Shown here in pieces: positions 11,876 to 39,805 of a stretch of 64,000 bases of DNA. The notes under the pieces were generated by a model that saw only the letters and a program-made list of their open reading frames with translations, was not told the origin of the DNA and ran no database searches. Within the stretch, counting starts at the first letter, position 1. Every line of letters starts with the position of its first letter. The position numbers were made by a program, and so were the translations under genes. The DNA is from Nitrosopumilus sp. (GTDB lineage Archaea > Thermoproteota > Nitrososphaeria > Nitrososphaerales > Nitrosopumilaceae), in NCBI GenBank assembly GCA_963667665.2, contig OY763927.2:768001-832000 (forward strand), read 5' to 3'.

Positions 11876-11932
11876 CAGCATTTTTTATTTTTCTAAACAA
11901 TTTTTAAGCCATTTCAGGCACAAAAAAGGGAA

Positions 11933-20190: not shown

Positions 20191-20703
20191 TTATTCACCA
20201 GAGGGCCTGTTTGTTTCATTCAAATTAAGTTTTGTTACGCCATCCAATGGATGTTCATCATAAAATTTATTCCATTTTTTATAATGAGACTTGTCTTTGT
20301 CAATTGCATTTGCATCATACATTTTTAATAAAAGTTCATTTGTTGAATTGTTGTTTAAAATTGTATCTAATTTGTCTTCATCACAAACAAAGGTATCTTG
20401 GAGATTATCTGTAAGAATTTTGGCACATTTTTTCTTGAACTGACTCTTAAAATTAAGTAGTTTTTTGGCATTAGGATAATTCAACATAAGTAATGTTTCA
20501 AGTTCTTCAAAGTAAATAGAAAATATGTTTTTATCAAATATGATCAACTCTTCTTTTCGTTTTTTTAATTTATCATTTTGAAATTCACCCACTATGTTTT
20601 GTTCATTTTCAGGAACAAGATATTTATCTATTTTAGCAAAAACAAATATTCGTTTTTCAAGAGTTTTAAATTGGAAACAATAGACATTGCTGGTTTTTTT
20701 CAT
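20191..20703 (-). CDS. Hypothetical protein
   Basis: 170-aa ORF. Confidence 0.55.
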   Translation of the reverse strand: MKKTSNVYCFQFKTLEKRIFVFAKIDKYLVPENEQNIVGEFQNDKLKKRKEELIIFDKNIFSIYFEELETLLMLNYPNAKKLLNFKSQFKKKCAKILTDNLQDTFVCDEDKLDTILNNNSTNELLLKMYDANAIDKDKSHYKKWNKFYDEHPLDGVTKLNLNETNRPSGE

Positions 20704-20910
20704 TTCTTTTATACTGGTAAGTGGTGACAGATCTTCCTGTGTTTCAGATTAATAAGATGGTTTCAACATCATATTGAATTCTTTTTTGTACATTTTTGTT
20801 ACTTTATCTGATGTGAATTTACCGCCAGTTGAGAATCCTCCTAGTTTGGAACAGTGTACTGGAAATGGTTCTGTAAACTCCGGGGTTGCTTTTTTATTTT
20901 TATTCCATTT

Positions 20911-21135
20911 TTAATGATATTTTGATTCCCAGCATTTTTTATGATATCTCTTTCTGCCATTCCTTGTGCTTGTAGTAGTATGAATTGTATCATTAAGGAC
21001 AAATGGCTTTCCGCATTTTACACATTTAGAATTTCTGAATTTTTTTAGTTGTGAATGATTTCTTATTACTGTGTCATTGGTTGCCATCAGTCTACTATGC
21101 CATGATTCAGCAGTATAACTTTGATGTTTAATCAA
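20911..21135 (-). CDS. Small zinc-finger protein
   Basis: CVKCGK...YHKKCW (C2-HC) motif. Confidence 0.6.
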   Translation of the reverse strand: MIKHQSYTAESWHSRLMATNDTVIRNHSQLKKFRNSKCVKCGKPFVLNDTIHTTTSTRNGRKRYHKKCWESKYH

Positions 21136-21342
21136 AAATGATTAAAGTAAAAGACCATCAAAATGAAAACCAAACTTGAGGGGATGGTTAATTGGATACT
21201 GTGTGGCGGTCTTTTACTATACCATGAGTTATGTATGGATCAGATTTATGGTTGGCGATCAGCAATTCAATTCAATTTATGTCATCAATAAATTAAAAAA
21301 TCAAGTTTAAAAGAAAAAAATTCAACAAATAACAGATTTCAA

Positions 21343-21606
21343 ATGAGTAAAAACCAAACAATTTTTGCAGTCAAAATAAATGACATGTCAGCAGAACTGG
21401 AAATAGACAATTCCAAAATCAAATGCATCACTGGAAACACAGTTCATTTTGAAGCATTATTGAGTGATTTGAGGTCGTTTGTACATGTCAAATCAAACCA
21501 AATTTTGTTGAATTTTTACCAAAAAAACCAGCTAGTTCAATGTACCATTACATCAAAGCACTGTCTAAGTATAACCAAATCCATTGAAGAATTCACTCAA
21601 AACTAA
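21343..21606 (+). CDS. Hypothetical protein
   Basis: ORF only. Confidence 0.45.
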   Translation: MSKNQTIFAVKINDMSAELEIDNSKIKCITGNTVHFEALLSDLRSFVHVKSNQILLNFYQKNQLVQCTITSKHCLSITKSIEEFTQN

Positions 21607-22290
21607 ATTTCTTGTTATTTTCTGTAATTATTGTAATGCTTGTACCTTGAATGGCAGGCTCTATTGCAATGATTTTTGATTGTGGTATGTCAGTTAATGA
21701 CTCAAGCGTATTGGTGTCATAAATGACATAACTCTCATCAGGATTTCCATCTATGAATAATTTTTTGATTATAATTGCATCTGTTCCTTGATTCATTACA
21801 TCTATTCGCAATACTGGATTTTCAATAATATCAATTAATTTTAATTGCTCTGAGGCGTATTTTTTCTGCATTTCAACTTTATCATACTGTGAAACACTTT
21901 CAACTTGTAGGGTATACAATACCAAATGTAACAGTAACCATTCCTGCAATTACTATCCATTCAAGTATTTGATTCAAAGTTCTGCCCCTTTGATGCAATC
22001 TGAGATATGATCTTGGTTTGATATTTCAAGAACCATCATTACATCATTTTCAGTAAAATCATCAATTTGAAATTCAATCTCAATGTATGCACCAGGTGCA
22101 ATTGTACCAATAGTCATTTCATTAATCGTAATGACATCATTAAACAAACTAAGGTCATAGTTTTCAATATCATAATCTCCATTGTTTATGGCTATTGCTT
22201 CTGTCCATAAATTATTTTTATCAACTGTATAGATTAATCCATTTTCAAAAACAAGATAATCAACTAAGATATTGAAAAGTATCTCGAATA
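21593..22290 (-). pseudogene. Decayed surface/pilin-like gene fragments
   Basis: N.G...I.I...FIDG and ITENNKKF pilin-like tail; hydrophobic N-terminus lies in another frame; upstream fragment is cut by an IS. Confidence 0.4.
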
Positions 22291-22291
22291 A

Positions 22292-22933
22292 TACACGCGG
22301 TGCTAGAAGAGATCCCGGATGTACATAGTCGTCACACGATGATGATAATGATACAGAATGATCTGTTCAGTGTGCAGATGTTTTGTGTATGCTGATTACT
22401 GCTGTATGATTGCAGGGTCTACAGGTATGATCCGCGGAGGGCGACATGGCCCGTTTTGATTTTTGAGGGCACCTTGCATGTATCCGAACAGTTTGACTAT
22501 GGGCACCTCCCCACTGTGCAACAGCTGCCTGATCCTCTTTTGCAGCTCATCTAACCCCCCCCCCCAAAAAAAAAAAAATATGTCTGCAACTGCGCGCCTT
22601 ATCTTGCTCCATTGTATCTCAGTTGGATTGTGCTGCAGGGTACTGGGAGGCAGAAACCACAAGACGACATCTTGGTGCTTTTGATATATTCGTCCATCTG
22701 TTTGCCGGTGTGGGCTGCCGCGTTGTCAAGTATTACGAACACTCTGCCATACCTGTATCTGAGATACTCCAAAAATGCAATTACGCTCTGGGCATCCGTC
22801 TTTTGATGGAACTGCATATCAAACGTACCCTGTCCCAGCGCCCCTATGATCTTTATGCTCTTTTTTGAAAAATTAATCTGGACCGTGTCCTTTCCGCCTT
22901 TTACACGTATGCCTCGCATCGATGAGGGCGCAT
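22292..22933 (-). mobile_element. IS630-family transposase remnant (5' truncated, frameshifted)
   Basis: VILDNAAAH, LPP...NPTEIQW; GC-richer than flanks. Confidence 0.85.
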
Positions 22934-22959
22934 CCACGGGGATTATAAGGTTTTTAGTG
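22933..22959 (+). repeat. 27-bp direct repeat, copy 1 (tccacggggattataaggtttttagtg)
   Basis: Identical to 23965-23991. Confidence 0.92.
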
Positions 22960-23085
22960 GTTGTTTGAGACCCAAAAAATTTCTAGATTTTGGGTTTTCA
23001 TAATCTCAATAACCATTTTGGGGATGAAAAGGGACGCAGATGAGTATAGAAATTGATTTTAAACATATGTTTAGGATGAAATTCC

Positions 23086-23892
23086 TTGACGAAAAAGAAA
23101 ATCATCATCAGCATATTTGTTGGAATTATTGCAATATTGGGATTAGACGCCTTTGTAATCGAACCCAACATGATCGAAGTTAATGAAATTAATATCTCAA
23201 ATACTGGAACTACAATGAAAATTGGTTTTATTTCTGATTTTCAAAGACAAAATTCTGATCCTGTATTTGTTCAACGTGTTGTAGATATACTAAATGCACA
23301 AGATCTTGATACAGTAATTATTGCAGGTGATTTTATAGATAGAAGTTTAGGTGAATTACCTTCACTGGATCCATTAGGGGAATTAGAAACAAGAAGTGGA
23401 GTATATGGTGTTTTAGGAAATCATGATTATAATGTATATTCTTTGAATCGTAATAATGCTAATTTTGAACTTGCAGAAACTGTAATAGAATATCTTGAAT
23501 CCAATGGTCCAATAGAAATTCTTAGAAATGAGAATGTTGTAATTAATGATGTTGTAATAATCGGTCTTGATTCTTACTGGGCAGGTTTAAGAGATTTAGA
23601 TAAAGCTTTTACAAATACTTCAAATGATTTCAAAATTTTATTTGCACATAATCAAAATGATTTAGAAATTAACAAAGAAATTGCAGATGTGTATTTATTT
23701 GGACACACTCATTGTGGACAAGTTAGACTTCCATATGTTGAATCCATACCAAAAATATTTGGATTTGAAGGGGATTATGACTATAGACATTATATTGTAA
23801 ATGATGCAGATGTCTATACAACATGTGGTTTAACTCCTGCACCAAGATTTTTCAATCCTCCAGAAATTACAATCATAAATTTGTTGGAATAA
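23086..23892 (+). CDS. Membrane-anchored metallophosphoesterase (YkuE-like)
   Basis: SD, GDF, GNHD and GHTH motifs. Confidence 0.88.
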   Translation: MTKKKIIISIFVGIIAILGLDAFVIEPNMIEVNEINISNTGTTMKIGFISDFQRQNSDPVFVQRVVDILNAQDLDTVIIAGDFIDRSLGELPSLDPLGELETRSGVYGVLGNHDYNVYSLNRNNANFELAETVIEYLESNGPIEILRNENVVINDVVIIGLDSYWAGLRDLDKAFTNTSNDFKILFAHNQNDLEINKEIADVYLFGHTHCGQVRLPYVESIPKIFGFEGDYDYRHYIVNDADVYTTCGLTPAPRFFNPPEITIINLLE

Positions 23893-23964
23893 CTGTTTTT
23901 CTTTTAATTGAAAATCAATATTCTATTAATTTAGGCTAAAATGAGCAAAAAGAAAATCCATGTG

Positions 23965-23991
23965 TCCACGGGGATTATAAGGTTTTTAGTG
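23965..23991 (+). repeat. 27-bp direct repeat, copy 2
   Basis: Identical to 22933-22959. Confidence 0.92.
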
Positions 23992-24139
23992 ACTATTTTG
24001 GCACGGTATAAAAATATCAAATACTCTCAATGAACACTTCAAAAGTACCTCTGTTAAGGCATAATCATGTCATTTAAGAGATACAGTTTAACAATTCATT
24101 TAGTTTTACATGGTTTGTAATTGTCACAGTCAAAAATAT

Positions 24140-24754
24140 TTAGTCTATTTTATTCCAATTTAATTTTTCAGCAGTTTCAAGTAAAACACAAGCTAATTTT
24201 CCATTAGGTCTTTCAGCTAATAGCTGCAATTCATTTTTGCATTTGATTTCTTTGATATGAACATTGTTTTCTATTTGTATTTTTAAAGACAATCTAATTA
24301 TTTCAATTTCATTACAATCATTTACAATCTGTGTCACCGTTCTACCAGCAGCCATAGATCCTGAAATAATTTCTATTGCATCAGAATTTCTAACAGGAAT
24401 TACCAAATTATAAAAACAATCTGATTCGGATTGTTTAATTTCTAATCCAGAATGTCCATTAGATTGTTTAGCATGCAAACTAAAACCAAAATCCAAGTTG
24501 GTAGTTCTAGGCATTTCTTTTGGAATTTGTATATGAATAGTGTCAGTGATCACTTTATCAAATACAATTGTTCCTGTTGGTAAAACCCCATTACCCCAAC
24601 TAAGTTTGATATCAGCTACGTTTGAACTGTTTGTGGTTATTGTAAATCCATCTACATCAAAAGATTTTGTTTCTTCAGCATATGCTATAGGAATTAATGT
24701 CACAATTGCTAAAAGAGAAATTATTATTTTATTCATGATTATTTTTTTCATCAT
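24140..24754 (-). CDS. Secreted protein with thaumarchaeal C-terminal module (LK.Q...I.C...G..ACV...AEKL.W)
   Basis: Signal peptide and recognisable Cys-pair module. Confidence 0.7.
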   Translation of the reverse strand: MMKKIIMNKIIISLLAIVTLIPIAYAEETKSFDVDGFTITTNSSNVADIKLSWGNGVLPTGTIVFDKVITDTIHIQIPKEMPRTTNLDFGFSLHAKQSNGHSGLEIKQSESDCFYNLVIPVRNSDAIEIISGSMAAGRTVTQIVNDCNEIEIIRLSLKIQIENNVHIKEIKCKNELQLLAERPNGKLACVLLETAEKLNWNKID

Positions 24755-24794
24755 CAGTATTATTAGTTATTTAGGAATCTAAAGAAAAAAAAGA

Positions 24795-24930
24795 TTAGAA
24801 GCCCCATGTAAGACCACTAAGATAGGTTGTGAATTTATCAGCTTTGACATAAACAGATCCAGTTGAATCATCAGGGTTTTTAGCTACCATAAATCCAAGT
24901 AATTCAGAACCACTTGAATTGAATACGGGA
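24795..24930 (-). pseudogene. C-terminal fragment of a secreted, possibly trypsin-like protein
   Basis: PVFNSSGSELLGFMVA...LTWGF; N-terminal part replaced by the cupin fragment. Confidence 0.35.
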
Positions 24931-25298
24931 ATACGCCAAACGACAATTGGGCAATCATTTGAGTATCCTTCTAATCCTCCAAACATTGATGTTCATTTTA
25001 TTGAGATCTTACCTGGTGCAGAAAGTGGTTGGCATACTCATGACACGCCCTTGGTTGTAACTATTCTACATGGTGAGATTACAATTCATTATTGTAACGA
25101 AGAAATAGAAAATTCTGCAGATAAAGAACAATGTAATGATAAAGGAATTGTCAGAAATTTTCAAGCAGGGGATTCATTTGTTGAGGCAATCAATATAGAA
25201 CATAATGGAGTAAATGATGGAGTGATTCCTGTAAAATGCATGTAATTACGTTGAATCCAGATGAAAACTGGGAAGATATCTATTCTCCAGAGGATTAA
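24930..25298 (+). pseudogene. Cupin-domain gene fragment (5' truncated, frameshift near 25237)
   Basis: PGAESGWHTH, AGD.FVE and H.G.N motifs. Confidence 0.75.
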
Positions 25299-25342
25299 TG
25301 AATGACTAAGATTAAGTGGTTATTTTAGGTACAAAATCATGC

Positions 25343-25545
25343 CAAGTTTTGATTGTAATTAACAAAAATTAGCAATAGAGTTAATGCTAGAATCTTAAAA
25401 TTATCATTGCAATTTCTTAACACTGATTAGCACGTAATGTTTTGCTAGGAATTGATTTTAGTACTTTTTTGTGCGTAACTTTTTTCGTTCCTAGTGCGTA
25501 ATAATTAGAGGTTAGAAATGCTAAATTCTATCAAATTATGCTAAT
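25343..25545 (+). repeat. ~200-bp intergenic repeat, copy A
   Basis: 25436-25485 identical to 26548-26597; TAGCA-N10-TGCTA twice. Confidence 0.9.
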
Positions 25546-25555
25546 GTTATTAATA

Positions 25556-26386
25556 TTACATCAAAATTTCACAGATTTCAATCCATCCACTTTGTTGATC
25601 AAATAGTGCATTTTGAAAGGTTCTTTCTTTTTCCATTGCTTTCATTTCATAATGAGTAAATAATTTTGCATTGATCTTTTTTAGATGTATCTTAATATCT
25701 TCAACATCATATCTTGTAATAGAAGATAGATTAGCATCACGTGAAATTAGATTAAATGGATACTCTGCTATTTCAAGCCATTCATTTGGAATTCTGTTTG
25801 CAGGAAGTAAATACTCTAAAACAACATGATTGTTTTGGTTTTCTGATTTAAACTCACCAATAATTCTCCATAGTTGATCTTCTGACAAATAGTAAGACAA
25901 GCCTTCAATAATTATTAGCGAGGGCATGTTCTTATTCCATCCATGTTTTATCAGATTTGGAATTATTTTATTTGATTCTGACAGATTGAGATCAATACAT
26001 GAAATAGAATCTACAAGTGATAAATGTACATCACGAATCAAATCTCTTTTTACATCCATGTTTTTAGCATCAATTTCAAAAACTCTGTATTTTTTTGAAT
26101 GTGAACATATTTCCAAGGATAATGCATCAAGACCAGCACCAAGAATTACTATCTGTTCAATCTTGTTTTCTAAGATATTATTTTTGGTTAAATCAAGTAT
26201 GCATGATTTTCTGTTCTTGAGAATTTCTGGATAATGTGGCCAAAGTTTTTTGCATTGTTCTAAAATTTCTCGTCCAGAATCTAAATTTAACATGCTAAGA
26301 AATTTCTGAGCAAAATGACTTGTATGAATTTCTCCATTTGTCCACAAAAGAACCAATGCAGAGGTGGAAGAAAGATCTGTCTTCAT
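25556..26386 (-). CDS. Class I SAM methyltransferase (LCM-like)
   Basis: QIVILGAGLD, FEID and EGLSYYL motifs. Confidence 0.85.
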   Translation of the reverse strand: MKTDLSSTSALVLLWTNGEIHTSHFAQKFLSMLNLDSGREILEQCKKLWPHYPEILKNRKSCILDLTKNNILENKIEQIVILGAGLDALSLEICSHSKKYRVFEIDAKNMDVKRDLIRDVHLSLVDSISCIDLNLSESNKIIPNLIKHGWNKNMPSLIIIEGLSYYLSEDQLWRIIGEFKSENQNNHVVLEYLLPANRIPNEWLEIAEYPFNLISRDANLSSITRYDVEDIKIHLKKINAKLFTHYEMKAMEKERTFQNALFDQQSGWIEICEILM

Positions 26387-26464
26387 TCTTGTAAATTACC
26401 TAGTTTAATTCTTAAATTTTTGTTCATATTCATTCTATTTTTAGAATCATGTAATTAATGGTCA

Positions 26465-26650
26465 TAATTTAACAAAAAATTAGCAATAGAGTTAATGCTA
26501 TAATCTTAAAAATCATCATTACAATATTCTAGCACAGACTTACGCACAATGTTTTGCTAGGAATTGATTTTAGTACTTTTTTGTGCGTAACTTTTTTGTT
26601 TTGTTATACGTAAAAAATAAGGTAATGTGTTAGAATCTAGCAGTATTCTA
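26465..26650 (+). repeat. ~200-bp intergenic repeat, copy B
   Basis: Colinear with copy A. Confidence 0.9.
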
Positions 26651-26679
26651 TTATTTTTATAATATGTAATTAAAAAAAT

Positions 26680-28905
26680 CTAACTTAATTCAATTATGTC
26701 CCTTGCTAATGAATCATGATATTCTATTTGTATTACCATGAATCCTTTGAGAATATGTTTTGGTATTTCAATATTGATGTTACCGTATTTGTCATCATAT
26801 GACATTTGCTCATACATTCTTTTACCATCTTGATCAAAAATTGTTAAAAATATAGGTTCACGATATTCTACAAGTTTTGCAATCTTGCCAGTTATTTTTA
26901 CTGTACTATTAATTGCAGATGCATCTATGACAATTTCCGGTGATTGTATAGAGAGATATAATTTTATATTGTTTTTGAATTGTTGAATTGATTCTGTAGC
27001 AGATTGGATTTTTCCACCAGTGAGATCTTGTTTGATTTTATTTATGAGTAATTGAATTTTCCACAATTGTTTTTCAGAACCAGAATTAGTAAATTTCTTT
27101 ACAAAACTTTCTAGACTTTCAAACGTATTTGCTATTTCCATTATTGCAATCTCATCTGAATTAAAGATCATGCTTTGAAGATCATCATCTTGAATTGATA
27201 TTATCTGTGATTCTTTGGCAGAGCCATGATGTATTTCTGCAATATATAATCCAGATTTTATATCACTGTTCCACAAAATTTGAAAGTCACCATATTTTGT
27301 AGTACGTGAATTAAGTTCTACAATTTCATTATTCTGATTAAAAAGATAAAATGAAACCTTATCCCTTGAATTCAAAGAATGTTTGTATACTGCACCTTTG
27401 ATAGTTAGCAGGTTTGAATCAGAGTCATAGAGTATATCCATCATTATTCTGGGATCATGTGGTAAAAACTTCTGACTTGCAAAATCAATAATTTTGTAGA
27501 TTTTTTTATGACCTACCTCAAAATTCCCGTACAGGATGGATGCTTTAGATTCCCGTATTGATTTATGATATTTCTGATAATCTACAGAAGTATGGTTAAT
27601 GTTTAAACTACTCACCAATGTATCTATTTGTGAAATTTGGTTCAGATAGATCTGCTTTTTTTGTGCAGTTGAAATATCGTGTTGCTTGTAAATGGGCGTG
27701 TAATTTCTTATCTCAGGATAAAATCGCTCAAAGTTAATCCATTCCTGTTCTACTGCATCAAGTAATTGTTGTGCATACCTGAAATCATTTAATTCCAAGG
27801 CATTTTTAATGTTAGATACTCGCTTCAGAGTATTTTTTATTTTTGATTCAAATTCTGGCATTTTCTCTAAATGAGATTTGTCGTTTGCTTTATTTTGTAA
27901 TTGAATTACTTTTTGTTCCATCTGATTCTTGTTATCAAGATACAAGCTATATTCTTTGAGATCTGATTTTATCTTTAAATAATTCTGACTTATATTATGT
28001 AAAATTGCCTTTGACTGTACATCATTATCAAACGGATTTGAATTTTTTTCTATCTTTTTTACCATGTTCAAATTTTTGATGTTTTGTTCTATGAGCATAA
28101 GATCTTGAATATTTTCTTGTTTCTTAGCATCATTTTTGAGTGTTGTAATTTTTACTTCCCATTTTGATATTATTTTATCATCTATTTTACCTACTTTTCC
28201 ATGATACTTTGTTGCAATTTTTGTCATATCTGTTATGGATTGAGATTGTGACATTTCCTTTTTGAAATTATCCCATACTGATTTTACATGTGGATCAATT
28301 ATTATGAATACTGGAGAATGTGTATTTTCATTAATTCTTGAATTGTATTTTATTATTTTTCCCATGTTCTCAACATCTGTTTGAAATGATAAGACATCAT
28401 CAACTGTTTTTGATTCTTTTATTTTTGCATGTATTGGTTCCCATATGTAATGCAGGTATATTTTTGAATCCAGAATTTCATTATATCTTAGCATCTGTTT
28501 AATTTTGTTTGAAGAAATCAATATGTCAATTGATTGTTCTAGATATTTTATCTCATTTTGATATGTTGTGATCTGTTTCATTGTTTCTACCTGTCTCAGT
28601 GATGCCCTAAGATCTCTTAATGAATCAATTATTTCTGGATAGTTTTTTTGTTGGTAAATTTCTTCTAATCCATCAATAGAATTTAAGATATTTTTGACTG
28701 TGTATTGTTGTAATTGTGAAGTTGCATTCCAATTACCTTCTACGTCTGCTTTGAATTTATCTTTTAGAATTAGACTCAAAGAATCAATTTGTTCCAACAT
28801 TGCTACATATTGACTTGCATCTGTTGCATAGACGACATTAACTGGGATAAGAGTAACAAATCCAATTAAAAATATTATGATAATAGTAGATTTAGTATAT
28901 CTCAT
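26680..28905 (-). CDS. Large secreted helical protein with two C-terminal beta modules
   Basis: Signal peptide; 741-aa ORF. Confidence 0.7.
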   Translation of the reverse strand: MRYTKSTIIIIFLIGFVTLIPVNVVYATDASQYVAMLEQIDSLSLILKDKFKADVEGNWNATSQLQQYTVKNILNSIDGLEEIYQQKNYPEIIDSLRDLRASLRQVETMKQITTYQNEIKYLEQSIDILISSNKIKQMLRYNEILDSKIYLHYIWEPIHAKIKESKTVDDVLSFQTDVENMGKIIKYNSRINENTHSPVFIIIDPHVKSVWDNFKKEMSQSQSITDMTKIATKYHGKVGKIDDKIISKWEVKITTLKNDAKKQENIQDLMLIEQNIKNLNMVKKIEKNSNPFDNDVQSKAILHNISQNYLKIKSDLKEYSLYLDNKNQMEQKVIQLQNKANDKSHLEKMPEFESKIKNTLKRVSNIKNALELNDFRYAQQLLDAVEQEWINFERFYPEIRNYTPIYKQHDISTAQKKQIYLNQISQIDTLVSSLNINHTSVDYQKYHKSIRESKASILYGNFEVGHKKIYKIIDFASQKFLPHDPRIMMDILYDSDSNLLTIKGAVYKHSLNSRDKVSFYLFNQNNEIVELNSRTTKYGDFQILWNSDIKSGLYIAEIHHGSAKESQIISIQDDDLQSMIFNSDEIAIMEIANTFESLESFVKKFTNSGSEKQLWKIQLLINKIKQDLTGGKIQSATESIQQFKNNIKLYLSIQSPEIVIDASAINSTVKITGKIAKLVEYREPIFLTIFDQDGKRMYEQMSYDDKYGNINIEIPKHILKGFMVIQIEYHDSLARDIIELS

Positions 28906-29140
28906 TTCATGTTTCTAATAGAATGTAAAAACATACAACTTAACGATTACGTAGAAATGATACGGAATGGTTATAACTTTTGATACAAATTTTACAACAT
29001 CTTTAACATCATAACACTCATCATAATGAGTTTTTGTTAAATAATTTATCATGCAAGTAATTTTAATCGCTCGTCACGACATTAAGAGATATCTATAACG
29101 TAGTTGCTTTTTTTCATTATGTCGTGACAAACTTTTCTTA

Positions 29141-29200
29141 TTTCAATTGCAATTAACAAAAGTTAGAATTAATGCTAGAATCATTGAGAACATTTTTCTA
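29141..29200 (+). repeat. Partial, degenerate copy C of the intergenic repeat
   Basis: caattaacaaaa...ttaatgctagaatc matches the start of copy A. Confidence 0.65.
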
Positions 29201-29254
29201 ATTATGTTTAATTACAGTTTGGTTAATATTTCGAAAGATTTGATTTCAGCATAG

Positions 29255-30055
29255 ATGACTACAGTGGACAATACTGCAATAATTTGGTCTGTTGTGATAG
29301 TTATCATTGCTGTAGGATTTACAACTCTAGGCAACACGGCAGAGCAGATTGAATCCAAAATTGTCACACCTACTCCATTTAATGTAAAACTTGATGTTGT
29401 AGAACCATCAATATCATCACAAATAACCGTAAAAACAGGCAAGGAGACATATCTCAAAAATGACAAAATCAAAGTTTCAGGTTTGGTAGATCCTGTATTG
29501 CCTGAGATTCAAGTGACCATGGTGGTTATTTCTCCAGAGGGTAATCTTATTGCAATTGCACAAACGGAACTTGATGATAACAAACAATTTTCTGAAACAA
29601 TTCTTACGAGTGGAGTATTATGGACTAGTGAAGGAGAATACTCTATAGAAATAATTTATGGAAAAACAAACACGGCTCAGATAACTTTTGAGTTTATCAT
29701 GCCAGTTGTTTCTGATTTAGTTGTAGAAAAAGTTGAAATTGAGAATTATGATTTACACTATGATATCACAAGTGGAATGGTTCATGACATTACGCTAGAT
29801 GATAATTGTAACTGCATGAATATAATTATTGATGCACAAGATAACGATGGTGTGTTAGCGTTATACCTGCCAAGAGGATTGATAGATGCAAAAATGAGTA
29901 ATGGTGAAGATGATATGTTTTTTATCTTGATGGATGGCGTTGAAATAGCTTATCAAGAAATTGACAGTACGGATTCAAACCGCACAATTGTAATAAAATT
30001 TGAACAAGGAACATCAGATATAGAAGTCATTGGAATTGATCCAAATTGGAGATAG
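29255..30055 (+). CDS. Thaumarchaeal surface protein of the PEFG-CTERM-associated family, lacking the sorting tail
   Basis: LPRGLIDA...DD.FFIL.DG.E...IEVIG motif. Confidence 0.75.
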   Translation: MTTVDNTAIIWSVVIVIIAVGFTTLGNTAEQIESKIVTPTPFNVKLDVVEPSISSQITVKTGKETYLKNDKIKVSGLVDPVLPEIQVTMVVISPEGNLIAIAQTELDDNKQFSETILTSGVLWTSEGEYSIEIIYGKTNTAQITFEFIMPVVSDLVVEKVEIENYDLHYDITSGMVHDITLDDNCNCMNIIIDAQDNDGVLALYLPRGLIDAKMSNGEDDMFFILMDGVEIAYQEIDSTDSNRTIVIKFEQGTSDIEVIGIDPNWR

Positions 30056-30060
30056 ATGGT

Positions 30061-30280
30061 GTTACCAGAATTTTGTCAAGTTTTAATTACAATTAGCAAA
30101 AAATTAGCAGTCAGACTTAATGCTAGAGTCTTGGAAAAAGTCTAGCAAAATTATAGCACTCAATTACTCGACAACAAAGTGCTACAAACAATTTTAGCAT
30201 TAATTTGTGTGTAATTTTTTTTGTTTCTAGTGCGTAAAAAACAGAGGGTGCAAGTAGGATTCTGTCAAGATATGTCTTGT
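30061..30280 (+). repeat. ~200-bp intergenic repeat, copy D (more diverged)
   Basis: caagtttt..., aaaattagca...ttaatgctag and ctagtgcgtaa shared with copy A. Confidence 0.85.
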
Positions 30281-30296
30281 AATACTAGGTGATTCT

Positions 30297-32338
30297 AGAA
30301 GGAAGGAGTATGCTATACTCCAGAATACATAACAAATTACATTTGTTTGAATACAATTATTCCTCATTTATCCAAATCAAATGCAACATCCATATCAGAA
30401 CTAATCAAAGAGTATGAAAATAACGTCGACGAACTAGAAAAAAAATTTAAAGAAATGAAAATTTTAGATCCAGCTTGTGGTAGTGGAGCATTTTTAGTAA
30501 AAGCAATCGACATATTACTTGAAATTCATAAAGAAATTCAAGATATAAAAGGAAAAAGTGAAAAACATTCAGAAAAACAGTTACAAATTACGCATGAATG
30601 GGATGAAAATAAAGAAGTCAGAGCAATTATTGAAAATAACATCTACGGGGTAGATATTAATCCAGAATCAATAGATATTACAAAATTAAGCTTATTTCTA
30701 AAATTAGCTTCTAACGAAAGAAAGCTGATTGGATTATCTAACAATATCAAAGTTGGGAATAGTCTAGTAGACGATAATACAATCGATTCACATGGTTTTC
30801 TTTATGATAAAGAATTTCCAGAGGTAATGGAACTTGGCAAATTTGATATTATAATTGGAAATCCTCCATACATCAGAGTACAAAGAATCAAACATGAAAT
30901 AATTGATTTTCTTTTAGAAAAATATGAGTGTGCACACAAAAAATTTGATATTTCATTAATGTTTTTTGAAAAAAGTCTAGAATTGATAAATGAAGATGGA
31001 TTAATAGGCTTCATCTCATCATCACAATGGCTTAACACAGATTATGGTGAAAAATTACGTGAGATGTTGTCAAAAGGTTTGATAAAAGAGATCATAGATT
31101 TTGGAAGTTTACCAATTTTTGAAGATGCTTCTACATATCCAGCCATATTCATTCTAAGTAAAGATATTCAGAAGAGATTACAATACAAAAAAATTAAAGA
31201 TCAATCAAAACTTTCCTTAGAAGGAATAACATCATCAAAAGGCATCCCAATGCAATATTCAAAATTTGGGAAAAAATCATGGTCATTTAATGAATTTGAT
31301 TTAATTTCTCACTTAGAAAAAAATAAAATAAATTGGAATTTACTCTCAACTCATGGTAATTTCTATTATGGAACAATTTCGGGTCAAGATGAAGTATTCA
31401 TTGTCAGTATTGACATAGTTCAAGCAAACAATCTGGAACAAAAATTTCTTTTTCCGTATGCATATCAAGGAAGAGAAGTTAAGAAATTTCTAAAAACAAT
31501 TCCATCCGAAATGATTATCTATCCATACAAATCAGATTCAGATGGAAAGGCAATTTTGATGAAAGAGGATGAATTGAAGTCCAAAGCGCCTAACATTCAC
31601 AATTATTTACTCAAACACAAACCAAAGTTACTTGAAAGAAAAGATTCTCGAAAATTTTATGCAAAAGGAGAGAATTGGTTTAAACTTGTTAGACAAGGAA
31701 ATTTTAACTTAATCTATCCAAAAAAACTTTTGATAAAAGGCATAGAAAAAGAATCAGTTGTAGGCTTTTTATCAGAAAATACTGCTTTTAGTGGGGCAAA
31801 TTCACCTGCATTCATACTTGAAAATGAGAAATATGACTGGAAGGTGTTCTTGTGCATTTTAAATTCAACATTAATTTCACAATATCTACAATCAATTTGT
31901 CCTGCAAAATTACACGGATTCTTTAGATTTAACACAAACAGTCTCAACACAATTCCAATACCTGAATATATTAACAAATCCGAGATTCAGGAATTGGAGA
32001 AAACAGCTCAAGAAATAATAGACATAACATCAAAATTCCATTTAAAACAAAGAAAATTCTTTAATAGAGTGTTAGACAATTTTGAATTAGAACAAATTCC
32101 ACAAAAGATTAACAAAATAATAAATATAGATTTTAAAATATTCTTAAACACAATAACAAAAAGTACTAAGAAAAAACTTTCACTAAAAGAACAAGAAGAA
32201 TGGGAAGAATATTTTGAAGATTGTAGAAATGAATTAATAAAATTTGAAGAAAGCATTCGAAAAGACAAATTAAATATAGATGAAATTGTTTTTAGAATTT
32301 ATCATATTTCTAATATCCAAAAAAATATTAAAAAATAA
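30297..32338 (+). pseudogene. Type IIG (Eco57I-like) restriction-modification gene, N-terminal nuclease part missing
   Basis: EGVCYTPEYIT, DPACGSGAFL, GNPPY and TaqI-C-like TRD. Confidence 0.85.
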
Positions 32339-32672
32339 TGAATTTTGAATAGTTTTCAAACAAAAATGATTAAAACAAGGAATCTAAAATAGTATGTAAA
32401 AATGGAAGAGACAACTAGTCTACCTTAACAAATAAATTATTTTGGAACCTAAAAAAGGACATCACAGTAGCAAATTCTTTTAGATTAGATATGATTATTC
32501 CAACATATTTTCTTTTGATTGATCTTCTTCAAACTGTTTAACGCTTTCAGAAATATTATCCCAGCTTAATCCTTTTGATTCTCCAAGTGCCTCGGTAATT
32601 TCTTTCCTACTTGGATTTCCTTTTTTGAATTTTTTCCAGATTTTTTTCTTTTCACTCTCTGATGCCCTGCCT

Positions 32673-33953
32673 TCAAACCAAAGTGGAATTGCAAAATTGA
32701 AGAATCTGCTTGTGAGACTCGTCTGCAGCTAAACGACCCTTTTCATACTGAGAACGACGTGCCTCTAAACCGTATTCCAAATTATCTATTCTGTCATGCA
32801 AGTTTTGAATCACTTCATCTTTTTGCTCTAGTTTTTCAATGTCTTCTTGCTTTTCAGCAGCTTCCAGTCTAAGTCTTTCCTCATCAGATATTGTAAGAAA
32901 AGGAATTGCCTTTTGGTATTTGGGGAATCGCTCAAAATCTTCTTCTTGGTATCGCTCATATGCTTGCTCTAATCCTACCTTGTGACCCATCATGTCTTCT
33001 TTGTCCAGATAGTTTACCTTTGCACGCCTCATCATTGTATTGAAATATTTTCTGAATCCGTGATCTAGTTTTACCTCGTATCGTCTCTGGTTTTTCTTTA
33101 TTTCATCGCGTAATCCAATTTTTGTTACAATCTTGTCCACTCTGGAACGTACACCTTTTGATTGTAGACGTACTGGTACATCAAATCGAGTTGATGCAAT
33201 TAGTGGATCATCATTGGTTGGATACTTTAGGAATCTTGATTTCCATTCTTCTTTGTATAATGTTAATGCATAACATGCTTCAGGAGTTATGAATGTCCAG
33301 TACTCTTCTGGATCTCCTCTGTACACTCTTAGTGCAGCTCCTGTGTATTGTTGAGTTTTATCTTTGAAAAATATTACATCTTTCCAACAAAAATAATCCC
33401 ATGACTCTAATCGAAATCCAGCTGATGAGAACATTAGAATTATTACCTTGTCTGTAATGTCGGTACAACACTCAATCATCTTGTGAATTTCTTCTCTGGT
33501 GTATGCACGGTCTTCGCTTTTTGTTCTACGTGGTAACATCTTGTTGATTAGTTTCCAAGATACATCAACTTCATTTGCAGATAGTAATGCCTTGATTGGT
33601 TTTAGTCTGTTTGATACTGTGTTTGGAGAGATTTGATTAGAGTTTACTTCTTGTTTTACTTCTCTAACATATGATTTTAGAATAGATTTTGTTACAGTGA
33701 TATCTTTTCTTGCCAAGTCAATAAATAATTGAGACATTTCTTTTACATCCCTTGACTGGGGTTTTTCCCCCAAATATTGCTCAAAAATATAATCTGGAAC
33801 CATATTCAAGAATCGTGTCAGATTTCTGGTATATCCTCGTCGGGTCTCATCACTTCTGATTGATTCTACAAAGTTCGTATATGCGTCATTTTCTGTTATA
33901 TCCAATTCTATCTTCATGTATTTTCTTGTAGTACTTGGGTCTATTTCAGTCAC
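32673..33953 (-). CDS. Tyrosine recombinase/integrase
   Basis: GFR, HGFRK, MGH and Tyr catalytic set intact; tail probably continues in another frame to 32495. Confidence 0.92.
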   Translation of the reverse strand: MTEIDPSTTRKYMKIELDITENDAYTNFVESIRSDETRRGYTRNLTRFLNMVPDYIFEQYLGEKPQSRDVKEMSQLFIDLARKDITVTKSILKSYVREVKQEVNSNQISPNTVSNRLKPIKALLSANEVDVSWKLINKMLPRRTKSEDRAYTREEIHKMIECCTDITDKVIILMFSSAGFRLESWDYFCWKDVIFFKDKTQQYTGAALRVYRGDPEEYWTFITPEACYALTLYKEEWKSRFLKYPTNDDPLIASTRFDVPVRLQSKGVRSRVDKIVTKIGLRDEIKKNQRRYEVKLDHGFRKYFNTMMRRAKVNYLDKEDMMGHKVGLEQAYERYQEEDFERFPKYQKAIPFLTISDEERLRLEAAEKQEDIEKLEQKDEVIQNLHDRIDNLEYGLEARRSQYEKGRLAADESHKQILQFCNSTLV

Positions 33954-33962
33954 TAAAAGGGA

Positions 33963-34795
33963 ATGGGCCCACTAGGGTACCAAGCAAGCATCGGCTCAAC
34001 TGATGCAGGTAGTCCATTTTATTCCCCACTATGGAGAATACAGACTGCAACTTGGGATAACCCATCTATGGCAACTATGATAAAAGATACCAAGGGCATA
34101 ACCAAAGTTTCATCAAATGGTAGTTTAGAAACAGGTCTCGCAGGCTTTGTAGTTAATTGCCCATTTGTAGAAATGCCTGATGCCATGATGATGATGGATA
34201 ACATGATGATGGATAACATGATGGAAGATACCATGATGATGGATAACATGATGGAAGATACCATGATGATGGATAACATGATGGAAGATACCATGATGAT
34301 GGACGACATGATGATGGATAAAGACATGATGATGGACGACGACATGATGATGATGGACGATGACATGATGATGGATGATACCATGATGGACGATTCTATG
34401 ATGGATGACGACATGATGATGATGGATGACATGATGATGTCAGCAGATATGACAGGAAAACTAACTGCTCCAAAAGGTGAAATGCCATTTGGCGGTAAAA
34501 CAACTGGCTCATATTCCATCCAAGTAGATGGCAGTGGACACACCAACATAACCACACACATGAAAAGCATGTCACCAAACATGGTCCTTGAAGGCTGGTT
34601 AGTGGATACGGATACAGGTTACAAGCTAAGTCTTGGTAAATCCCATGACGATCGTAAATTAGCATTTGCACAAGCAGTGGTAAATCCTTGGATTTATGAC
34701 GCAATTGTAATGACTGAGGAACCAATTGGGGATACAGATCCTAGACCAACGTACCTGTAGGCGGAGTAAAACTAGATGTTCCATTTGGACACTAG
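33963..34795 (+). pseudogene. 5'-truncated paralogue of 4326..5726 with Met/Asp-rich linker and extra C-terminal domain
   Basis: GPLGYQ..YSPLWR..W...VVNCPF; frameshift near 34748. Confidence 0.75.
34183..34440. repeat. Degenerate atg/gat-rich coding tandem repeat including ~3 copies of a 30-bp unit
   Basis: atggaagataccatgatgatggataacatg. Confidence 0.9.
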
Positions 34796-34889
34796 TCCAT
34801 TTTTTATTTTTTTAAAATCTATGCTTTAGTACTGTACTACACTACACATCCAAGCCTGTACCTATACATCATTTCCAATTTTGGCAGGA

Positions 34890-34913
34890 TTATCTTATAA
34901 GATAAAGTAGGAT
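34890..34913. promoter_or_regulatory. 16-bp perfect palindrome ttatcttataagataa overlapping gataaagtaggat (candidate operator)
   Basis: Just upstream of an RHH gene; the 13-mer recurs at 35155-35167. Confidence 0.55.
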
Positions 34914-34922
34914 TACATCTTT

Positions 34923-35066
34923 ATAGACAAGCAAAAAATCAGTGTTACAGTATCCCCTGACCTTCTAAAATGGCTTGACTCTAAGATAAATAAAAAGATA
35001 TTTTCCAGCAGATCACATGGAATGGATTACTGTATCAATTTTACAAAAAACAAGACCAAAAAATAA
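34923..35066 (+). CDS. Ribbon-helix-helix (CopG-like) regulator, ATA start
   Basis: KQKISVTVSPDLLKWLD...FSSRSH pattern. Confidence 0.7.
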   Translation: MDKQKISVTVSPDLLKWLDSKINKKIFSSRSHGMDYCINFTKNKTKK

Positions 35067-35215
35067 TTATTAACTAATTGATTTTGTTTTAATCAATACA
35101 ATCTAATTGCATTCAATATAATTTTCACAATTCTATAATGTTATTCTATCACATGATAAAGTAGGATAAAGTAATAGAGAATATATAGTTGAATATTATC
35201 GTGTTTAATAATAAC

Positions 35216-35683
35216 ATGAAAAATGTAAAAACACTTGTATTTGCAATGCTCATTCTTAGCATAGTTATTCCAATAACTGGCTATAGTTTGGCAGAAGCAG
35301 ACGCAACAAACGAAGTGCTTGAAAACATACGAGAATTAAAAGAACAAGCCAAAGAACAAGCTAATAGTCTGACAGCTCCAGAAGATATTGATGTGAATCA
35401 AAAATATTTGGAGCGATTGACACTTGCAGAGGAATTAATCACCTTGCAAATCAATGACGAAGGCGATAGTGAAAAAGCAAGAGAACTGGAACAGAAACTA
35501 ATTTCTGAATTGGAAAAACTCCCAAAAACAGAAATGCGTTATGATGACGTTCCTGCTGAAATTGGTCCAGGAGATACAAATGATGTTGAAGAATATGATA
35601 GAATTTATGGGCCTAAAGCTCATGCTACATCAACTAATTATGATACTTCAAATGTATTGAGAACTGACTGTAGTTCATCATCA
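35216..35683 (+). pseudogene. Secreted protein (MKNVKTLVFA...IP family) interrupted by IS630
   Basis: ORF runs into the IS terminal repeat. Confidence 0.7.
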
Positions 35684-37212
35684 TATAGCAATGCGCATAA
35701 GTTTCTGTACATGATATTTTAGGACCATCATAGGCATAATGCCTCTTGTCTGGGGAATACACCAAAAGCACAAAACAAAATGCATGGAAAATTAAAATTC
35801 AGATTCATGTATGGCTATACATATCACATTGGAAAAAAATGCAGGCACCAACATGATACATACAGAAGATCAAACTATTCGTACAATCATTGTTTTTGTG
35901 CAGGTTTAGACGATACCTGGTGTGATACAATGTCGGGATTTGGCGGATCATCCATCTTTATGAATGGCCGCATGATTCCTTTGGGCGGTTTTCTCTTCCA
36001 GAATTTCTTAAAATTATAATCAAACTTGTGTACCCTGATAAATTCATACACTGCTGCCAGATGTGCATCCTTGTCTGCATAACGTATGGAATGATTCATT
36101 ACACGTTTGAGTACGCTCCATACTTCCTCTACGGGATTCAGATATGGATGTCCGATAGGATACCACAGGACAATAATGTCGCGCTCTGCAAAGAATCTTT
36201 TCGTCTCCTTGGATATATGCCACGGTGCCTTGTCTAGTATCAGGACCATCTTGCCTACCTCCATGTACACCTTGTCCATATGTTCTAGAAAGGAAGCGGT
36301 ATTGACAGTCTGACAGTGATTAAAAAACTGTCTGCCGTCTTGTGTCATGCTGCATATCATTGAGAATCTATGAAATCCTCCGCTCCATAACATGAATATG
36401 CGTAGGCACAGTTTTGCCCAATATTTTGCAGACATTGCAGCGTCCTTAAAGTGTGATTCATCTTGTGTTACAATTGTATATCGCATCTTTGTGTATCTTG
36501 CAATCTTTTGATACAGGCTGGCTCTCCATTTGTTCACCTCTTCTATTGGTGTTCTACTAACCATGATTGGCTGTGTCTTTTTTCTAGAGTATCCCCACTG
36601 TCTGGCATATCGCCTTATCTGCGAGATGCCAAGGTTTTTTCCAGACATCTCTTCTAGTGTCGTGCAGTTCTACGGGTGTAAATGCGCGTTTCTCGCACCA
36701 ATGCCTTGCTTTGTTTAGAATTTTTCTGTCTATCTTGGGTGGACGTCCTGACCGTGGTTTGTCTGAGAGGGCCTGCCATATTCCATGAAATGATTTTGCA
36801 GCACATGCAAACCTGCAATGTTACATGGCAACAGTACGACGATCACAACAAGATATTTTGGCAGTATTGACAAATGTTTTGATTACCATAAATGCCAACA
36901 GCATGGATAACCGACGTGATATACAGCCTACATGTTCTACTTTTTGCACTTGTTTTAGCATTTTATGTCCATGCATGTGTACATTTAGTGAAACAAATTT
37001 TTGACTTTTCCTATTTAGTAACAGTACGGTTAAATTGACGTTCGTGTGAAATGCCAAGATAGTTCTAGTTTACAAATTTGTGTGAAAAAAATACGTTGAA
37101 GGTATACAGATGCTGTTCGGAATGCAGGAGACGATGATTTACAAAGATGTGATGATCAAGGGACGACGATGCCCAGAAATTGGCTGTACAGAAACTTATG
37201 CGCATTGCTATA
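35684..37212 (-). mobile_element. IS630-family element, copy 1 (1529 bp including flanking TA)
   Basis: 28-bp TIR tatagcaatgcgcataagtttctgtaca; DES, LDKAPWH and LNPVEEVW motifs. Confidence 0.95.
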
Positions 37213-37386
37213 GGCCATAGGGCATTTATTGCAGGCAAGCATGGTGCTGTAATTCACATGATAGATCATAAAACAGGCCAAATAGTGAAAAAGGCTTTTG
37301 CCAAAGGTGCTGTTGTAAATGTAATTGGTGGTGTAGTTAGTTTTCTTGAACATCAAGTGTTAGGTGGACTGTTGAGCGAATTATAA
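37213..37386 (+). pseudogene. Small paralogue 1 (5' end cut by IS)
   Basis: FIAGKHGA...D.KTG..V.KAF.KG. Confidence 0.7.
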
Positions 37387-38985: not shown

Positions 38986-39777
38986 TTACTTTACCATTTT
39001 GTTCGGAAAACCACCAGGAACTGATGTGAAACCTTTAGTTTTCCATGAAGTTGAGGCATCATTGATAATTACATTGTTTTGATAAACAATTGTATCACCA
39101 CCTGCATCTGTTGTTTCATAGTCTACTTCAAATGTGGCACCCGTTGCACCCCCATGAGCCAAATAATCCACAAATGGATAAATGGTTTGAGAGTAATCAT
39201 CCAGTACTACTGTATCACTACCACCTAATGTTTTAGAGTAGGATATATGATCACTACTTCCAAACACAGTATGTTTCCATAGTCCCCAATGTGTATAGTA
39301 CACATAACCACCAACAAAATCTACGTGTTTACCACTGCAAGAACAGGCATATGTAATTCCTGTATCAGGATTATACATAACACTTGTTGTAGATACTGTT
39401 TCGGTAACTTCAGAAGGATTTGTATCCCAAATAGGAATACCTGTTTCAATAGTATTTTCTAATTGGTCAAAAGTCATGTATCCTCTTGCATTAAGTTTGC
39501 CTAAATCAAGTGCTCTATCTATTTCTGCATTGTTTTTAGATTCTCTTGTTGCTTCAGATTTATCATTCTTCTGTTTGAGTTCTTTTACTTTGGTGTCTTT
39601 TTCATGATATTCCTTTGCTAAGTCATAATCATTGCTAAATATTGCTTGGAGTTGCTCCTTACTTTTTTCAGAACTTGCTCCAAAAGCTTCGGTATTCATT
39701 CCACTAAATGGAAGAATCATTGCAACAATTAATCCAACAAACAATATTGTCTGTGTCTTTTTTGATATATTTTTCAT
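38986..39777 (-). CDS. Secreted protein (KTILF..LIVAMILPFS family)
   Basis: Signal peptide, helical region and beta-rich C-terminal domain. Confidence 0.75.
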   Translation of the reverse strand: MKNISKKTQTILFVGLIVAMILPFSGMNTEAFGASSEKSKEQLQAIFSNDYDLAKEYHEKDTKVKELKQKNDKSEATRESKNNAEIDRALDLGKLNARGYMTFDQLENTIETGIPIWDTNPSEVTETVSTTSVMYNPDTGITYACSCSGKHVDFVGGYVYYTHWGLWKHTVFGSSDHISYSKTLGGSDTVVLDDYSQTIYPFVDYLAHGGATGATFEVDYETTDAGGDTIVYQNNVIINDASTSWKTKGFTSVPGGFPNKMVK

Positions 39778-39805
39778 GTTATTATTAAACACAATAATAT
39801 TCCAC

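Follow-up and report, generated by a model that had tools for sequence, protein, structure and literature searches.

Twin 27-nucleotide repeats around a metallophosphoesterase gene of Nitrosopumilus sp. as probable ends of stacked integrative-element remnants

The locus considered here raises the question of whether a gene bracketed by two identical short repeats, with an integrase gene in its neighbourhood, is a cassette moved by this integrase or the trace of older integrations. It lies in a stretch of 64,000 nucleotides (the window: contig OY763927.2, positions 768,001 to 832,000, assembly GCA_963667665.2) of a Nitrosopumilus sp. genome, which is Nitrosopumilus-like, and in which the 27-nucleotide (nt) sequence TCCACGGGGATTATAAGGTTTTTAGTG occurs exactly at 22933-22959 and 23965-23991, both on the plus strand and spaced 1032 bp. 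A preliminary description took this 27-mer for the attachment (att) site of the integrase, not derived from a tRNA, and the unit of about 1 kb for a minimal excisable single-gene cassette in the style of dif modules. Our analysis leads to a different answer, which we hold to be probable: the two copies are outer ends of elements, each with a partial tRNA-Val core, and they mark remnants stacked on one another in the ordinary pattern of archaeal integrative elements.

Using an exact search and a scan of open reading frames (ORFs) and protein families, we confirmed that the identical pair encloses only a metallophosphoesterase (MPE) gene, as had been described: the sole ORF of at least 60 aa with a family match between the repeats is the MPE gene at 23086-23892 (Pfam Metallophos, E 1e-12). 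The window contains no further match to the 27-mer at up to three mismatches, none of 100 shuffles gave any match, and the copy number in the whole genome (1.89 Mb, 34% GC) is two, both in the window. At the 5' end of the integrase gene, the minus strand reads TTTTAGTG-ACTGAAATA-GACCCAA (33958-33935); copy 1 runs on as TTTTAGTG-GTTGTTTGA-GACCCAA and copy 2 as TTTTAGTGACT. The pattern TTTAGTG-N9-GACCCAA has only two sites in the genome, at copy 1 and at the integrase side, for a composition estimate of about 0.01, and the 11-mer TTTTAGTGACT occurs three times, close to the composition expectation and weak evidence if taken alone. The letters and the spacing reported for this half-site are correct; its orientation, which had not been weighed, is inverted with respect to both 27-mers, so that the half-site represents the opposite arm of an inverted repeat and no third direct copy. 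Two statements on the surroundings also stand: copy 1 adjoins an interrupted gene of the IS630 family (DDE_3), and next to the integrase-side site lies a DUF7482 gene truncated at its 5' end. The features on which the argument turns are the following.

22933-22959, minus strand: 27-mer copy 1, the outer, integrase-distal end of an 11-kb composite
22945-23005, minus strand: type I integrase-distal arm region, which with the half core (23005-22934) matches the arm of genome G387
23960-23991, minus strand: 27-mer copy 2 (23965-23991) with the rest of a variant full-length core, a putative internal attR-type junction
23984-23994, plus strand: TTTTAGTGACT, 11 bp that recur in inverted orientation in the integrase-side arm (33958-33948, minus strand)
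32498-33953, minus strand: tyrosine-recombinase integrase gene, with matches to NCBIfam XerA, PHROG 1 and Pfam
33941-33972, minus strand: integrase-side att junction of putative attL type, with tRNA positions 78-88 matching 33972-33962

The origin of the att core was examined by a blastn-short search of the genome's own tRNA-Val(UAC), the 3' end of which reads ...GGTTCAAATCCCCGTGGGCCCA|TT, against the window. Positions 71-81 of this tRNA (AATCCCCGTGG) match the minus strand at 22944-22934 and at 23976-23966, within the two 27-mers, and positions 78-88 (GTGGGCCCATT) match 33972-33962, directly upstream of the integrase-side motif. When the two 11-nt halves are overlapped at GTGG, 18 of 18 nt are those of the tRNA-Val(UAC) end with two flanking nt, and the rebuilt 18-nt core is bordered by the inverted arms CACTAAAA and TTTTAGTG. 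Since the halves rebuild the 3' end of tRNA-Val(UAC), the att site is tRNA-derived, and the opposite statement of the preliminary description has to be abandoned, all the more as homologous integrases are found behind tRNAs (see below).

On the minus strand, the 27-mer consists of CACTAAAA (the inverted-repeat arm), ACCTTAT (a spacer), AATCCCCGTGG (the left part of the tRNA-Val core) and a final A. It is the integrase-distal arm with the left part of the core, an attR-type junction and not a complete att site, and the integrase half-site, which reads GTGGGCCCATT (the right core part, 33972-33962), CCC and TTTTAGTGACTGAAATAG (a conserved arm possibly doubling as integrase promoter), is the other arm with the right core part, an attL-type junction. 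The idea that the 27-mer is the att site of this integrase is therefore retained in part: it belongs to the att apparatus of the element family, with a partial core and one arm. Copy 2, together with the adjacent bases that complete a full-length variant core, reads AATCCCCGTGGACACAT on the minus strand, with two mismatches to the tRNA core, and appears to be the attR-type junction at which, inside the composite, the integrase-bearing element meets the MPE remnant. The predicted attP has one arm (CACTAAAA...ACCTTAT), the core AATCCCCGTGGGCCCATT, a copy of the tRNA-Val(UAC) end, and the second arm (CCC...TTTTAGTGACTGAAATAG), and the junction expected in a circle may read as the arm of copy 1 or of copy 2, then AATCCCCGTGGGCCCATT, then CCCTTTTAGTG.

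Cores and arms of the same kind are found in relatives. The tRNA-Val(UAC) elements of G387, G311 and G201 end in the direct repeat AATCCCCGTGGGCCCAT, a 17-bp core, and that of G375b has the same core with one inserted G; G387 also carries, directly behind tRNA-Val(UAC), a mini-element of 1.3 kb with an integrase fragment 81-85% identical. Copy 1 with its flank (23005-22934) aligns with the arm and core of G387 (1375-1446) at 85% over 72 nt, and copy 2 with its flank (23998-23959) at 87.5% over 40 nt; in this alignment copy 2 retains the full core with two substitutions, GTGGACACAT for GTGGGCCCAT. A tRNA-derived core is thus present both here, with 18 of 18 nt of the own tRNA, and, as 17 bp, at the element ends of relatives. 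Each integrase-distal arm was also compared as an inverted repeat with the integrase-side arm and with 2000 shuffles.

Copy 1 arm of the window: 18/24, with 26 of 2000 shuffles as good
Copy 2 arm of the window (23984-23994): 11/11, with 2 of 2000 shuffles as good
G387 arm: 19/24, with 4 of 2000 shuffles as good

The integrase ORF at 32673-33953, with its start at GTG 33953 or ATG 33917, encodes 426 aa and is ended early by a 2-bp gap at 32718; the intact integrase has 499 aa, and its last 74 aa are encoded in another frame (32719-32498) and are 100% conserved. The TA that the window lacks behind 32718 is present in the contigs of four of four public runs (described below), and the frameshift after codon 426 is either a mutation of the strain or an assembly error. 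The protein matches the archaeal XerA of NCBIfam (E 1.7e-11, residues 46-338, below the curated cut-off), the PHROG 1 integrase (E 3.1e-9) and Pfam Phage_integrase (E 0.0019, below cut-off), and in a weak alignment with XerA 4a8e (E 0.067) the R (SAGFR), the H-x-x-R (DHGFRK), the H (MMGH) and the Y (YERY) stand opposite the template residues, which points to a tyrosine recombinase with its catalytic residues.

Relatives of this integrase number 623 at E <=0.001, the named ones being from Nitrosopumilus and Nitrosopumilaceae, and 17 of the 120 other genomes of the genus encode a homologue at E <=1e-60. We examined 109 homologue loci (29 genomic and 80 metagenomic, L008 and L026 being one same site), of which 69 could be assessed, 33 others lying near a contig end and 7 having an unaligned N-terminus (40 in total). 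A same-strand tRNA ends 1-33 nt before the integrase start in 56 of these 69 loci and in none of the remaining 13, and among the tRNAs used as targets are those for Val(UAC), Val(CAC), Pro, Lys, Arg and Met. In the homologues nearest to this integrase (66-81% identity; L004, L005, L008), TTTAGTGACTGAAATAG..CCA stands about 5 nt past the tRNA end, and a motif similar to ACTGAAATAG is found in 40 of the assessable loci; the homologues thus carry the half-motif upstream, the absence of which the preliminary description had named as an argument against its proposal. In the metagenome scan, no locus exceeded 73% identity over a near-full-length match. The family seems to comprise tyrosine recombinases of elements that integrate at tRNA 3' ends. 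It does not follow the SSV-type ('suicidal') arrangement with attP inside the integrase ORF, since here the core ends before the ORF and, in the 56 loci, the tRNA end lies upstream of an unsplit integrase gene. Some homologues in the genus (L013, L014 and L023, and L009 and L017) sit behind conserved non-tRNA sequences, ...GGGGAGACTAGTCGGCTCC... or ...AAACGGGCCCAAAGGG..., which could represent further genes for small RNAs or else targets of another kind.

What, then, is the MPE unit? Two features lie between the 27-mers.

23012-23052, minus strand: remnant of a type II integrase-distal element arm, just upstream of the MPE gene, matching arms of G387 and G201
23086-23892, plus strand: MPE gene, YaeI/LpxG-like, encoding an N-terminal hydrophobic stretch

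The MPE protein matches the YaeI/LpxG families of NCBIfam below cut-off and gives a weak match in a PADLOC scan (E 1.8e-4). The type II arm has counterparts in G387 (14976-15004; 97% identity over 29 nt) and in G201 (11850-11890; 85% over 41 nt), both of which directly adjoin attR cores. Of 150 other genomes of the genus, 8 contain homologues of the region 23012-23946, at 72-88% nucleotide identity. In G379, some 60 nt separate the MPE from the 3' end of tRNA-Val(UAC), and the gene has on its other side a degenerate core, ATGGGTTCACGGGATT, with a type II arm; in G177, two further degenerate cores with arms are found behind the MPE. Since the MPE of G379 lies beside tRNA-Val(UAC) between core-like repeats, we interpret the MPE unit as an old element remnant, in which the MPE gene would be the cargo of an element that no longer has an integrase. 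The single gene between core-like repeats would accordingly be a decay product of an integrated element, with different arms in different relatives.

The outer limits of the whole arrangement were deduced from an interrupted transposase gene.

22241-22937, minus strand: IS630-family remnant, the stretch of the transposase gene that follows the first catalytic region, frameshifted (Pfam DDE_3, E 1.4e-7)
22934-33972, minus strand: composite element of 11,039 bp, inserted as one unit in the IS630 gene, with CCAC as the only flanking repeat

The IS630 remnant is cut at its upstream end inside ...GCGCATCCAC and is 87% identical over 701 nt to two intact copies of G287, which read ...GCGCATCTAC|AAAGGCTGCGGC... 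across the insertion point, with AAAGGCTGCGGCGTCCACACATAC beyond the break; the restored gene may read GCGCATC.AC|AAAGGCTGCG. The missing half was not found anywhere in the own genome assembly. We then placed on positions 20500-35600 the Logan contigs of four public runs (X1, X3, X15 and X18) from three studies. On the left, contigs of X15, X18 and X3 lead from the IS630 remnant across the junction into copy 1, the MPE gene and copy 2, and contigs of X18 (180 nt) and X3 (12 nt) run to the right from 33972 as AAAGGCTGCGAC... and AAAGGCTGCGACGTCCACACATAC..., which is the missing IS630 half. In addition, P0001, a 499-aa integrase 99% identical to that of the window, starts with MWTSQPLWAH / MWTSQPLWAHSLLVTEI, the exact translation of the IS630 junction. 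As both IS630 junctions are present in other runs, 22934-33972 was inserted as one composite unit, which contains, from the integrase side, the integrase element of about 10 kb, copy 2, the MPE remnant, about 60 nt of a further arm and copy 1. At this secondary site only CCAC is repeated, the full or variant cores being internal (copy 2), whereas the elements of relatives have canonical flanking cores. Empty sites, proposed as a test in the preliminary description, do exist: the intact IS630 of G287 is uninterrupted across the insertion point, and at the own tRNA-Val(UAC) locus, 556 kb from here, the sequence runs on without the 2.4 kb of extra remnants, the MPE array, that G379 has at this place.

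On the right, the assembly of this genome departs from the contigs of X18 and X3, as past 33972 a truncated gene stands in place of IS630.

33963-34760, plus strand: 5'-truncated DUF7482 gene (last 51 domain positions and a Met/Asp-rich repeat tail), broken exactly where intact DUF7482 genes carry a look-alike of the att site

The intact DUF7482 paralogue of the genome reads CCTAGTGGACCAGTACCTTTTAG at 4549-4571, versus CCTAGTGGGCCCATTCCCTTTTAG at the junction (20/24, with one gap), and an att look-alike at the truncation point is also found in the DUF7482 genes of five relatives. A reciprocal DUF7482 junction was not found in the own genome. A deletion would have joined the attL to the DUF7482 look-alike, breaking it at GTGG. 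The Met/Asp-rich tail that ends the fragment consists of tandem units of 15 to 18 nt (ATGATGATGGATAAC-like, 34179-34452), and similar arrays give many matches in relatives, for example seven overlapping ones in G329.

We propose that a tandem array would have formed at the tRNA-Val(UAC) gene, with the integrase-bearing element of about 10 kb (copy 2 to the integrase) followed by an old integrase-less remnant in which only the MPE gene was left and, last, by an arm of about 60 nt from a further, deleted element (copy 1). This array would have been excised as one unit through its outermost sites and re-inserted by the integrase in a poorly matching secondary site in the IS630 transposase gene, with a crossover at GTGG; in a later event, in this genome, the other IS630 half would have been lost and the integrase-side junction joined to the DUF7482 look-alike, also at GTGG. 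Two independent breaks in the middle of the core, at GTGG, suggest that strand exchange occurs there and is performed by the integrase. The anatomy of the sites, their identity with the tRNA end, the homologous arms and cores of relatives, the two IS630 junctions and the empty sites are observed; the order of the events, the catalysis by this integrase and the exchange at GTGG are what we infer from them.

Several observations weigh against such a history. Both 27-mers carry one same extra base past the tRNA match, which we take to be fortuitous, as it has a 1 in 4 chance. Likeness of the IS630 target to the core is limited to GT(A/G)G, with about 9 of 26 surrounding positions matching, and the role of the integrase at IS630 is deduced from the position of the junctions at one point of the core. 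The inverted-repeat comparison was not significant for the arm of G375a (1009 of 2000 shuffles as good), and the cargo proteins of the 22.9-34 kb region had no homologue in the elements of the seven relatives examined, the only match of proteins of this region there being the DUF7482 fragment, outside the element. The integrase of the window is frameshifted, downstream of its catalytic residues, and no circular or excised form was seen in the assembled contigs, which drop rare forms. Because none of the contigs listed for the four runs, a minority of the records, bridges 33972 into the DUF7482 fragment, the DUF7482 junction is documented by the assembly and by the absence of the IS630 half, and a misassembly at this point stays conceivable. 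Finally, either of the two 27-mers may have been the one first paired with this integrase.

Dif modules are genes flanked by paired XerC/XerD-type sites, and integron cassettes have a folded, imperfect inverted-repeat attC and depend on an IntI integrase beside attI and a cassette promoter. The locus resembles both in having a single gene between two copies of a recombinase-related site, but its sites are direct repeats of an arm and a partial tRNA core rather than paired XerC/XerD half-sites or folded attC sites, and the MPE unit looks like a decay product that lies beside a tRNA in relatives. Instead of paired dif-type sites, the flanks are 27-nt direct repeats of an arm and AATCCCCGTGG, and the recombinase belongs to an integrative element and is of a kind that occurs beside tRNAs. 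The view that the 27-mer is a complete att site unrelated to tRNA, and the 1032-bp unit a single-gene cassette moved by the integrase in dif or integron style, could draw on the two identical direct repeats, which include the presumed crossover GTGG, on the possibility in principle that a matching circle recombines with a resident 27-mer, and on the att-core-like repeats that also bracket the MPE of G379. We nevertheless consider it very improbable. The 27-mer has one arm and a partial core only, the 1032-bp unit holds relics of two different element arms, and in relatives the neighbours of the MPE are different arms and the tRNA itself. No match to the 27-mer was obtained among 300 family genomes at up to three mismatches, nor in an exact search of the genome contig collection, so that no such cassette family exists there; together with the anatomy of arm and tRNA core, this absence would also argue against an integron cassette. 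Contigs of all four runs carry both copies with the MPE between them, and none of the joints listed for these runs skips the 1032-bp unit or the 10-11-kb element, a weak argument as contigs drop rare variants; moreover copy 1 differs from copy 2 at 22945 in X1 and X3, and their identity is thus not universal. With two arm relics in the unit, a tRNA-adjacent position in G379 and two 27-mers that moved together, the dif-style cassette of the preliminary description is not upheld.

It could also be supposed that the identity of the 27-mers results from gene conversion or unequal recombination and that the IS630 and DUF7482 junctions are microhomology events in which the integrase took no part. 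The flanks past the 27-mer are indeed diverged homologues around 27 identical nt, the DUF7482 site shares 20/24 positions with the junction, enough for short-homology recombination, and the IS630 site shares little with the core. Two separate events, at IS630 and at DUF7482, both broke at GTGG in the middle of the 18-nt core, however, and at IS630 the two junctions are cleanly reciprocal and enclose a complete element that includes its integrase; we regard this explanation as unlikely, if somewhat less so than that of a cassette. An A/T-rich, TATA-like stretch in the 27-mer allows the further suggestion that it is mainly a promoter (BRE/TATA-like AAAACCTTATAAT, minus strand) duplicated before two transcription units, its att likeness being secondary, and at the integrase ACTGAAATAG lies about 27 nt before ATG 33917, with the similar motif in 40/69 loci mentioned above. 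With two genomic copies and none in 300 relatives, and with copy 1 pointing on the minus strand into the cut IS630 and copy 2 into the antisense MPE tail, neither copy heads a gene, and this suggestion is no more credible than the cassette; att arms in this integrase family may nonetheless double as promoters. Two other arrangements were considered and dropped, namely copy 2 and the integrase site as products of an inversion, and an element of about 10 kb inserted between the MPE and DUF7482 at a rebuilt site CCCTAGTGGACACAT. In both cases ACACAT turned out to be a tRNA core variant in relatives, and the runs contain the IS630 junction.

Our preferred explanation, of stacked element ends with partial tRNA-Val cores, agrees with what has been described for integrated elements in other archaea. 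In the portions of the thaumarchaeal survey used here, att sites have a median length of 17 bp, 39 of 68 elements lie in tRNA genes, and there are reports of arrays that arise when one site is used repeatedly, of elements nested in one another and of inserted transposons (PMC6563490). The present element resembles those cryptic integrated elements (Krupovic et al. 2019, PMC6563490) by its integrase at one end, the tRNA 3' end as target, a short core (17-18 bp versus the median of 17 bp), a cargo of restriction-modification and unknown-function genes, and its arrays, nesting and interplay with insertion sequences. Unlike the elements presented in those portions (PMC6563490), the copy of the window lies away from its tRNA, in an IS630 gene with a 4-bp flanking repeat, and is a composite of one live-looking element and two remnants.

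For tandem tRNA-element arrays of archaea and bacteria, the parts of a second account considered here describe cores that separate the elements and older members that lose their integrase, and propose module exchange and joint excision of neighbours (PMC8371274). The window likewise has repeated att cores between successive elements and an integrase-less older member; the joint movement of an array, proposed in those parts, is documented here by both junctions at a secondary site (PMC8371274). According to the same parts, the pTN3 integrase of Thermococcus nautili performs low-specificity recombination that needs identical segments of about 100 bp or more (PMC8371274). Both are archaeal element integrases credited with chromosome-rearranging recombination outside the normal att site, but the sequence shared here is 4 bp (IS630) or 20/24 bp (DUF7482), the case is known from sequence alone, and the likeness does not imply relatedness (PMC8371274). 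It is possible, and we advance it only tentatively, that the integrase of the window recombines its att site with targets that share GTGG only or are look-alikes, mobilises remnants such as the MPE unit as passengers and in this way sculpts the chromosome; if this were true, the internal 27-mer would allow alternative excisions, either of the 10-kb element alone or with loss of the 1-kb MPE unit.

The remaining genes of the element, and the region beyond it, show further signs of mobility.

24140-32338: cargo of the integrase element, with genes for a WING-49-domain protein, a cupin, an LCM-type methyltransferase, proteins of 741 aa and 266 aa of unknown family and a type IIG-like methyltransferase

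The methyltransferase at 30347-32338 matches the type IIG profile only from position 375 of 1011, without the N-terminal part, and may be an orphan methylase or the partner of a neighbouring gene; apart from it, PADLOC found on the element only the weak MPE match, and an Rfam search of 22000-35000 at E <=0.1 gave 0 matches. A repeat of about 180 nt has four copies, which fill successive intergenic gaps of the cargo (25340-25520, 26469-26597, 29146-29182 and 30074-30247), with 71-89% identity, and is absent elsewhere in the genome. A low-depth contig of X3 (3.6) joins 25374 to 26487 with GT between, and skips 1112 bp that correspond to the LCM-type methyltransferase gene between two copies of this repeat; this is a real polymorphism of a single repeat-bracketed gene. 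A contig of X18 returns from 30188 to 24931 (5258 bp), which could reflect a duplication or a circle. The cupin region (24931-25305) is 97% identical to a stretch of G274 and about 80% identical to G177 and G410, and several contigs break at 24930/24931; from these breaks and identities, we consider this point a module boundary or the limit of a recently exchanged segment inside the element.

Further to the right, two inverted copies of an IS630-family element of 1.5 kb (35684-37213 and 39805-41318) are 99.7% identical, have 28-nt terminal repeats and are separated by 2.6 kb; the genome contains at least five full and three partial copies of it. The genes beside these two copies (35189-35722 and 38986-39792) are paralogous and share a 44-nt inverted repeat where they start, as would be expected from an inversion mediated by the insertion sequence or from parallel insertions. 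The segment 40000-53000 has 40-53% GC, versus 31-34% for the genome, and holds a further full IS630-like transposase (43660-44730), a fragment of an rve integrase core (43076-43534) and a PKD-repeat protein of 1447 aa (47199-51542); it is probably foreign DNA. A QueC fragment at 54899-55306 (profile positions 86-207 of 210) is situated at the right edge of the variable region.

The locus reveals no new cassette system and provides instead a readable history of the pile-up of mobile elements in an ammonia-oxidising archaeon. Its points of interest, modest in scope, are the joint move of a live element and its decayed neighbours into an insertion sequence and the two secondary-site junctions at GTGG, the suggested point of strand exchange. 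For one common clade of Nitrosopumilus integrases, the analysis defines the arm repeats and an att core of 17-18 bp of tRNA-Val(UAC), and it documents that a live element can take its decayed neighbours along to a new site outside tRNA genes. It is of help for a correct annotation of such islands and supplies substrates for a first biochemical test of a thaumarchaeal integrase.

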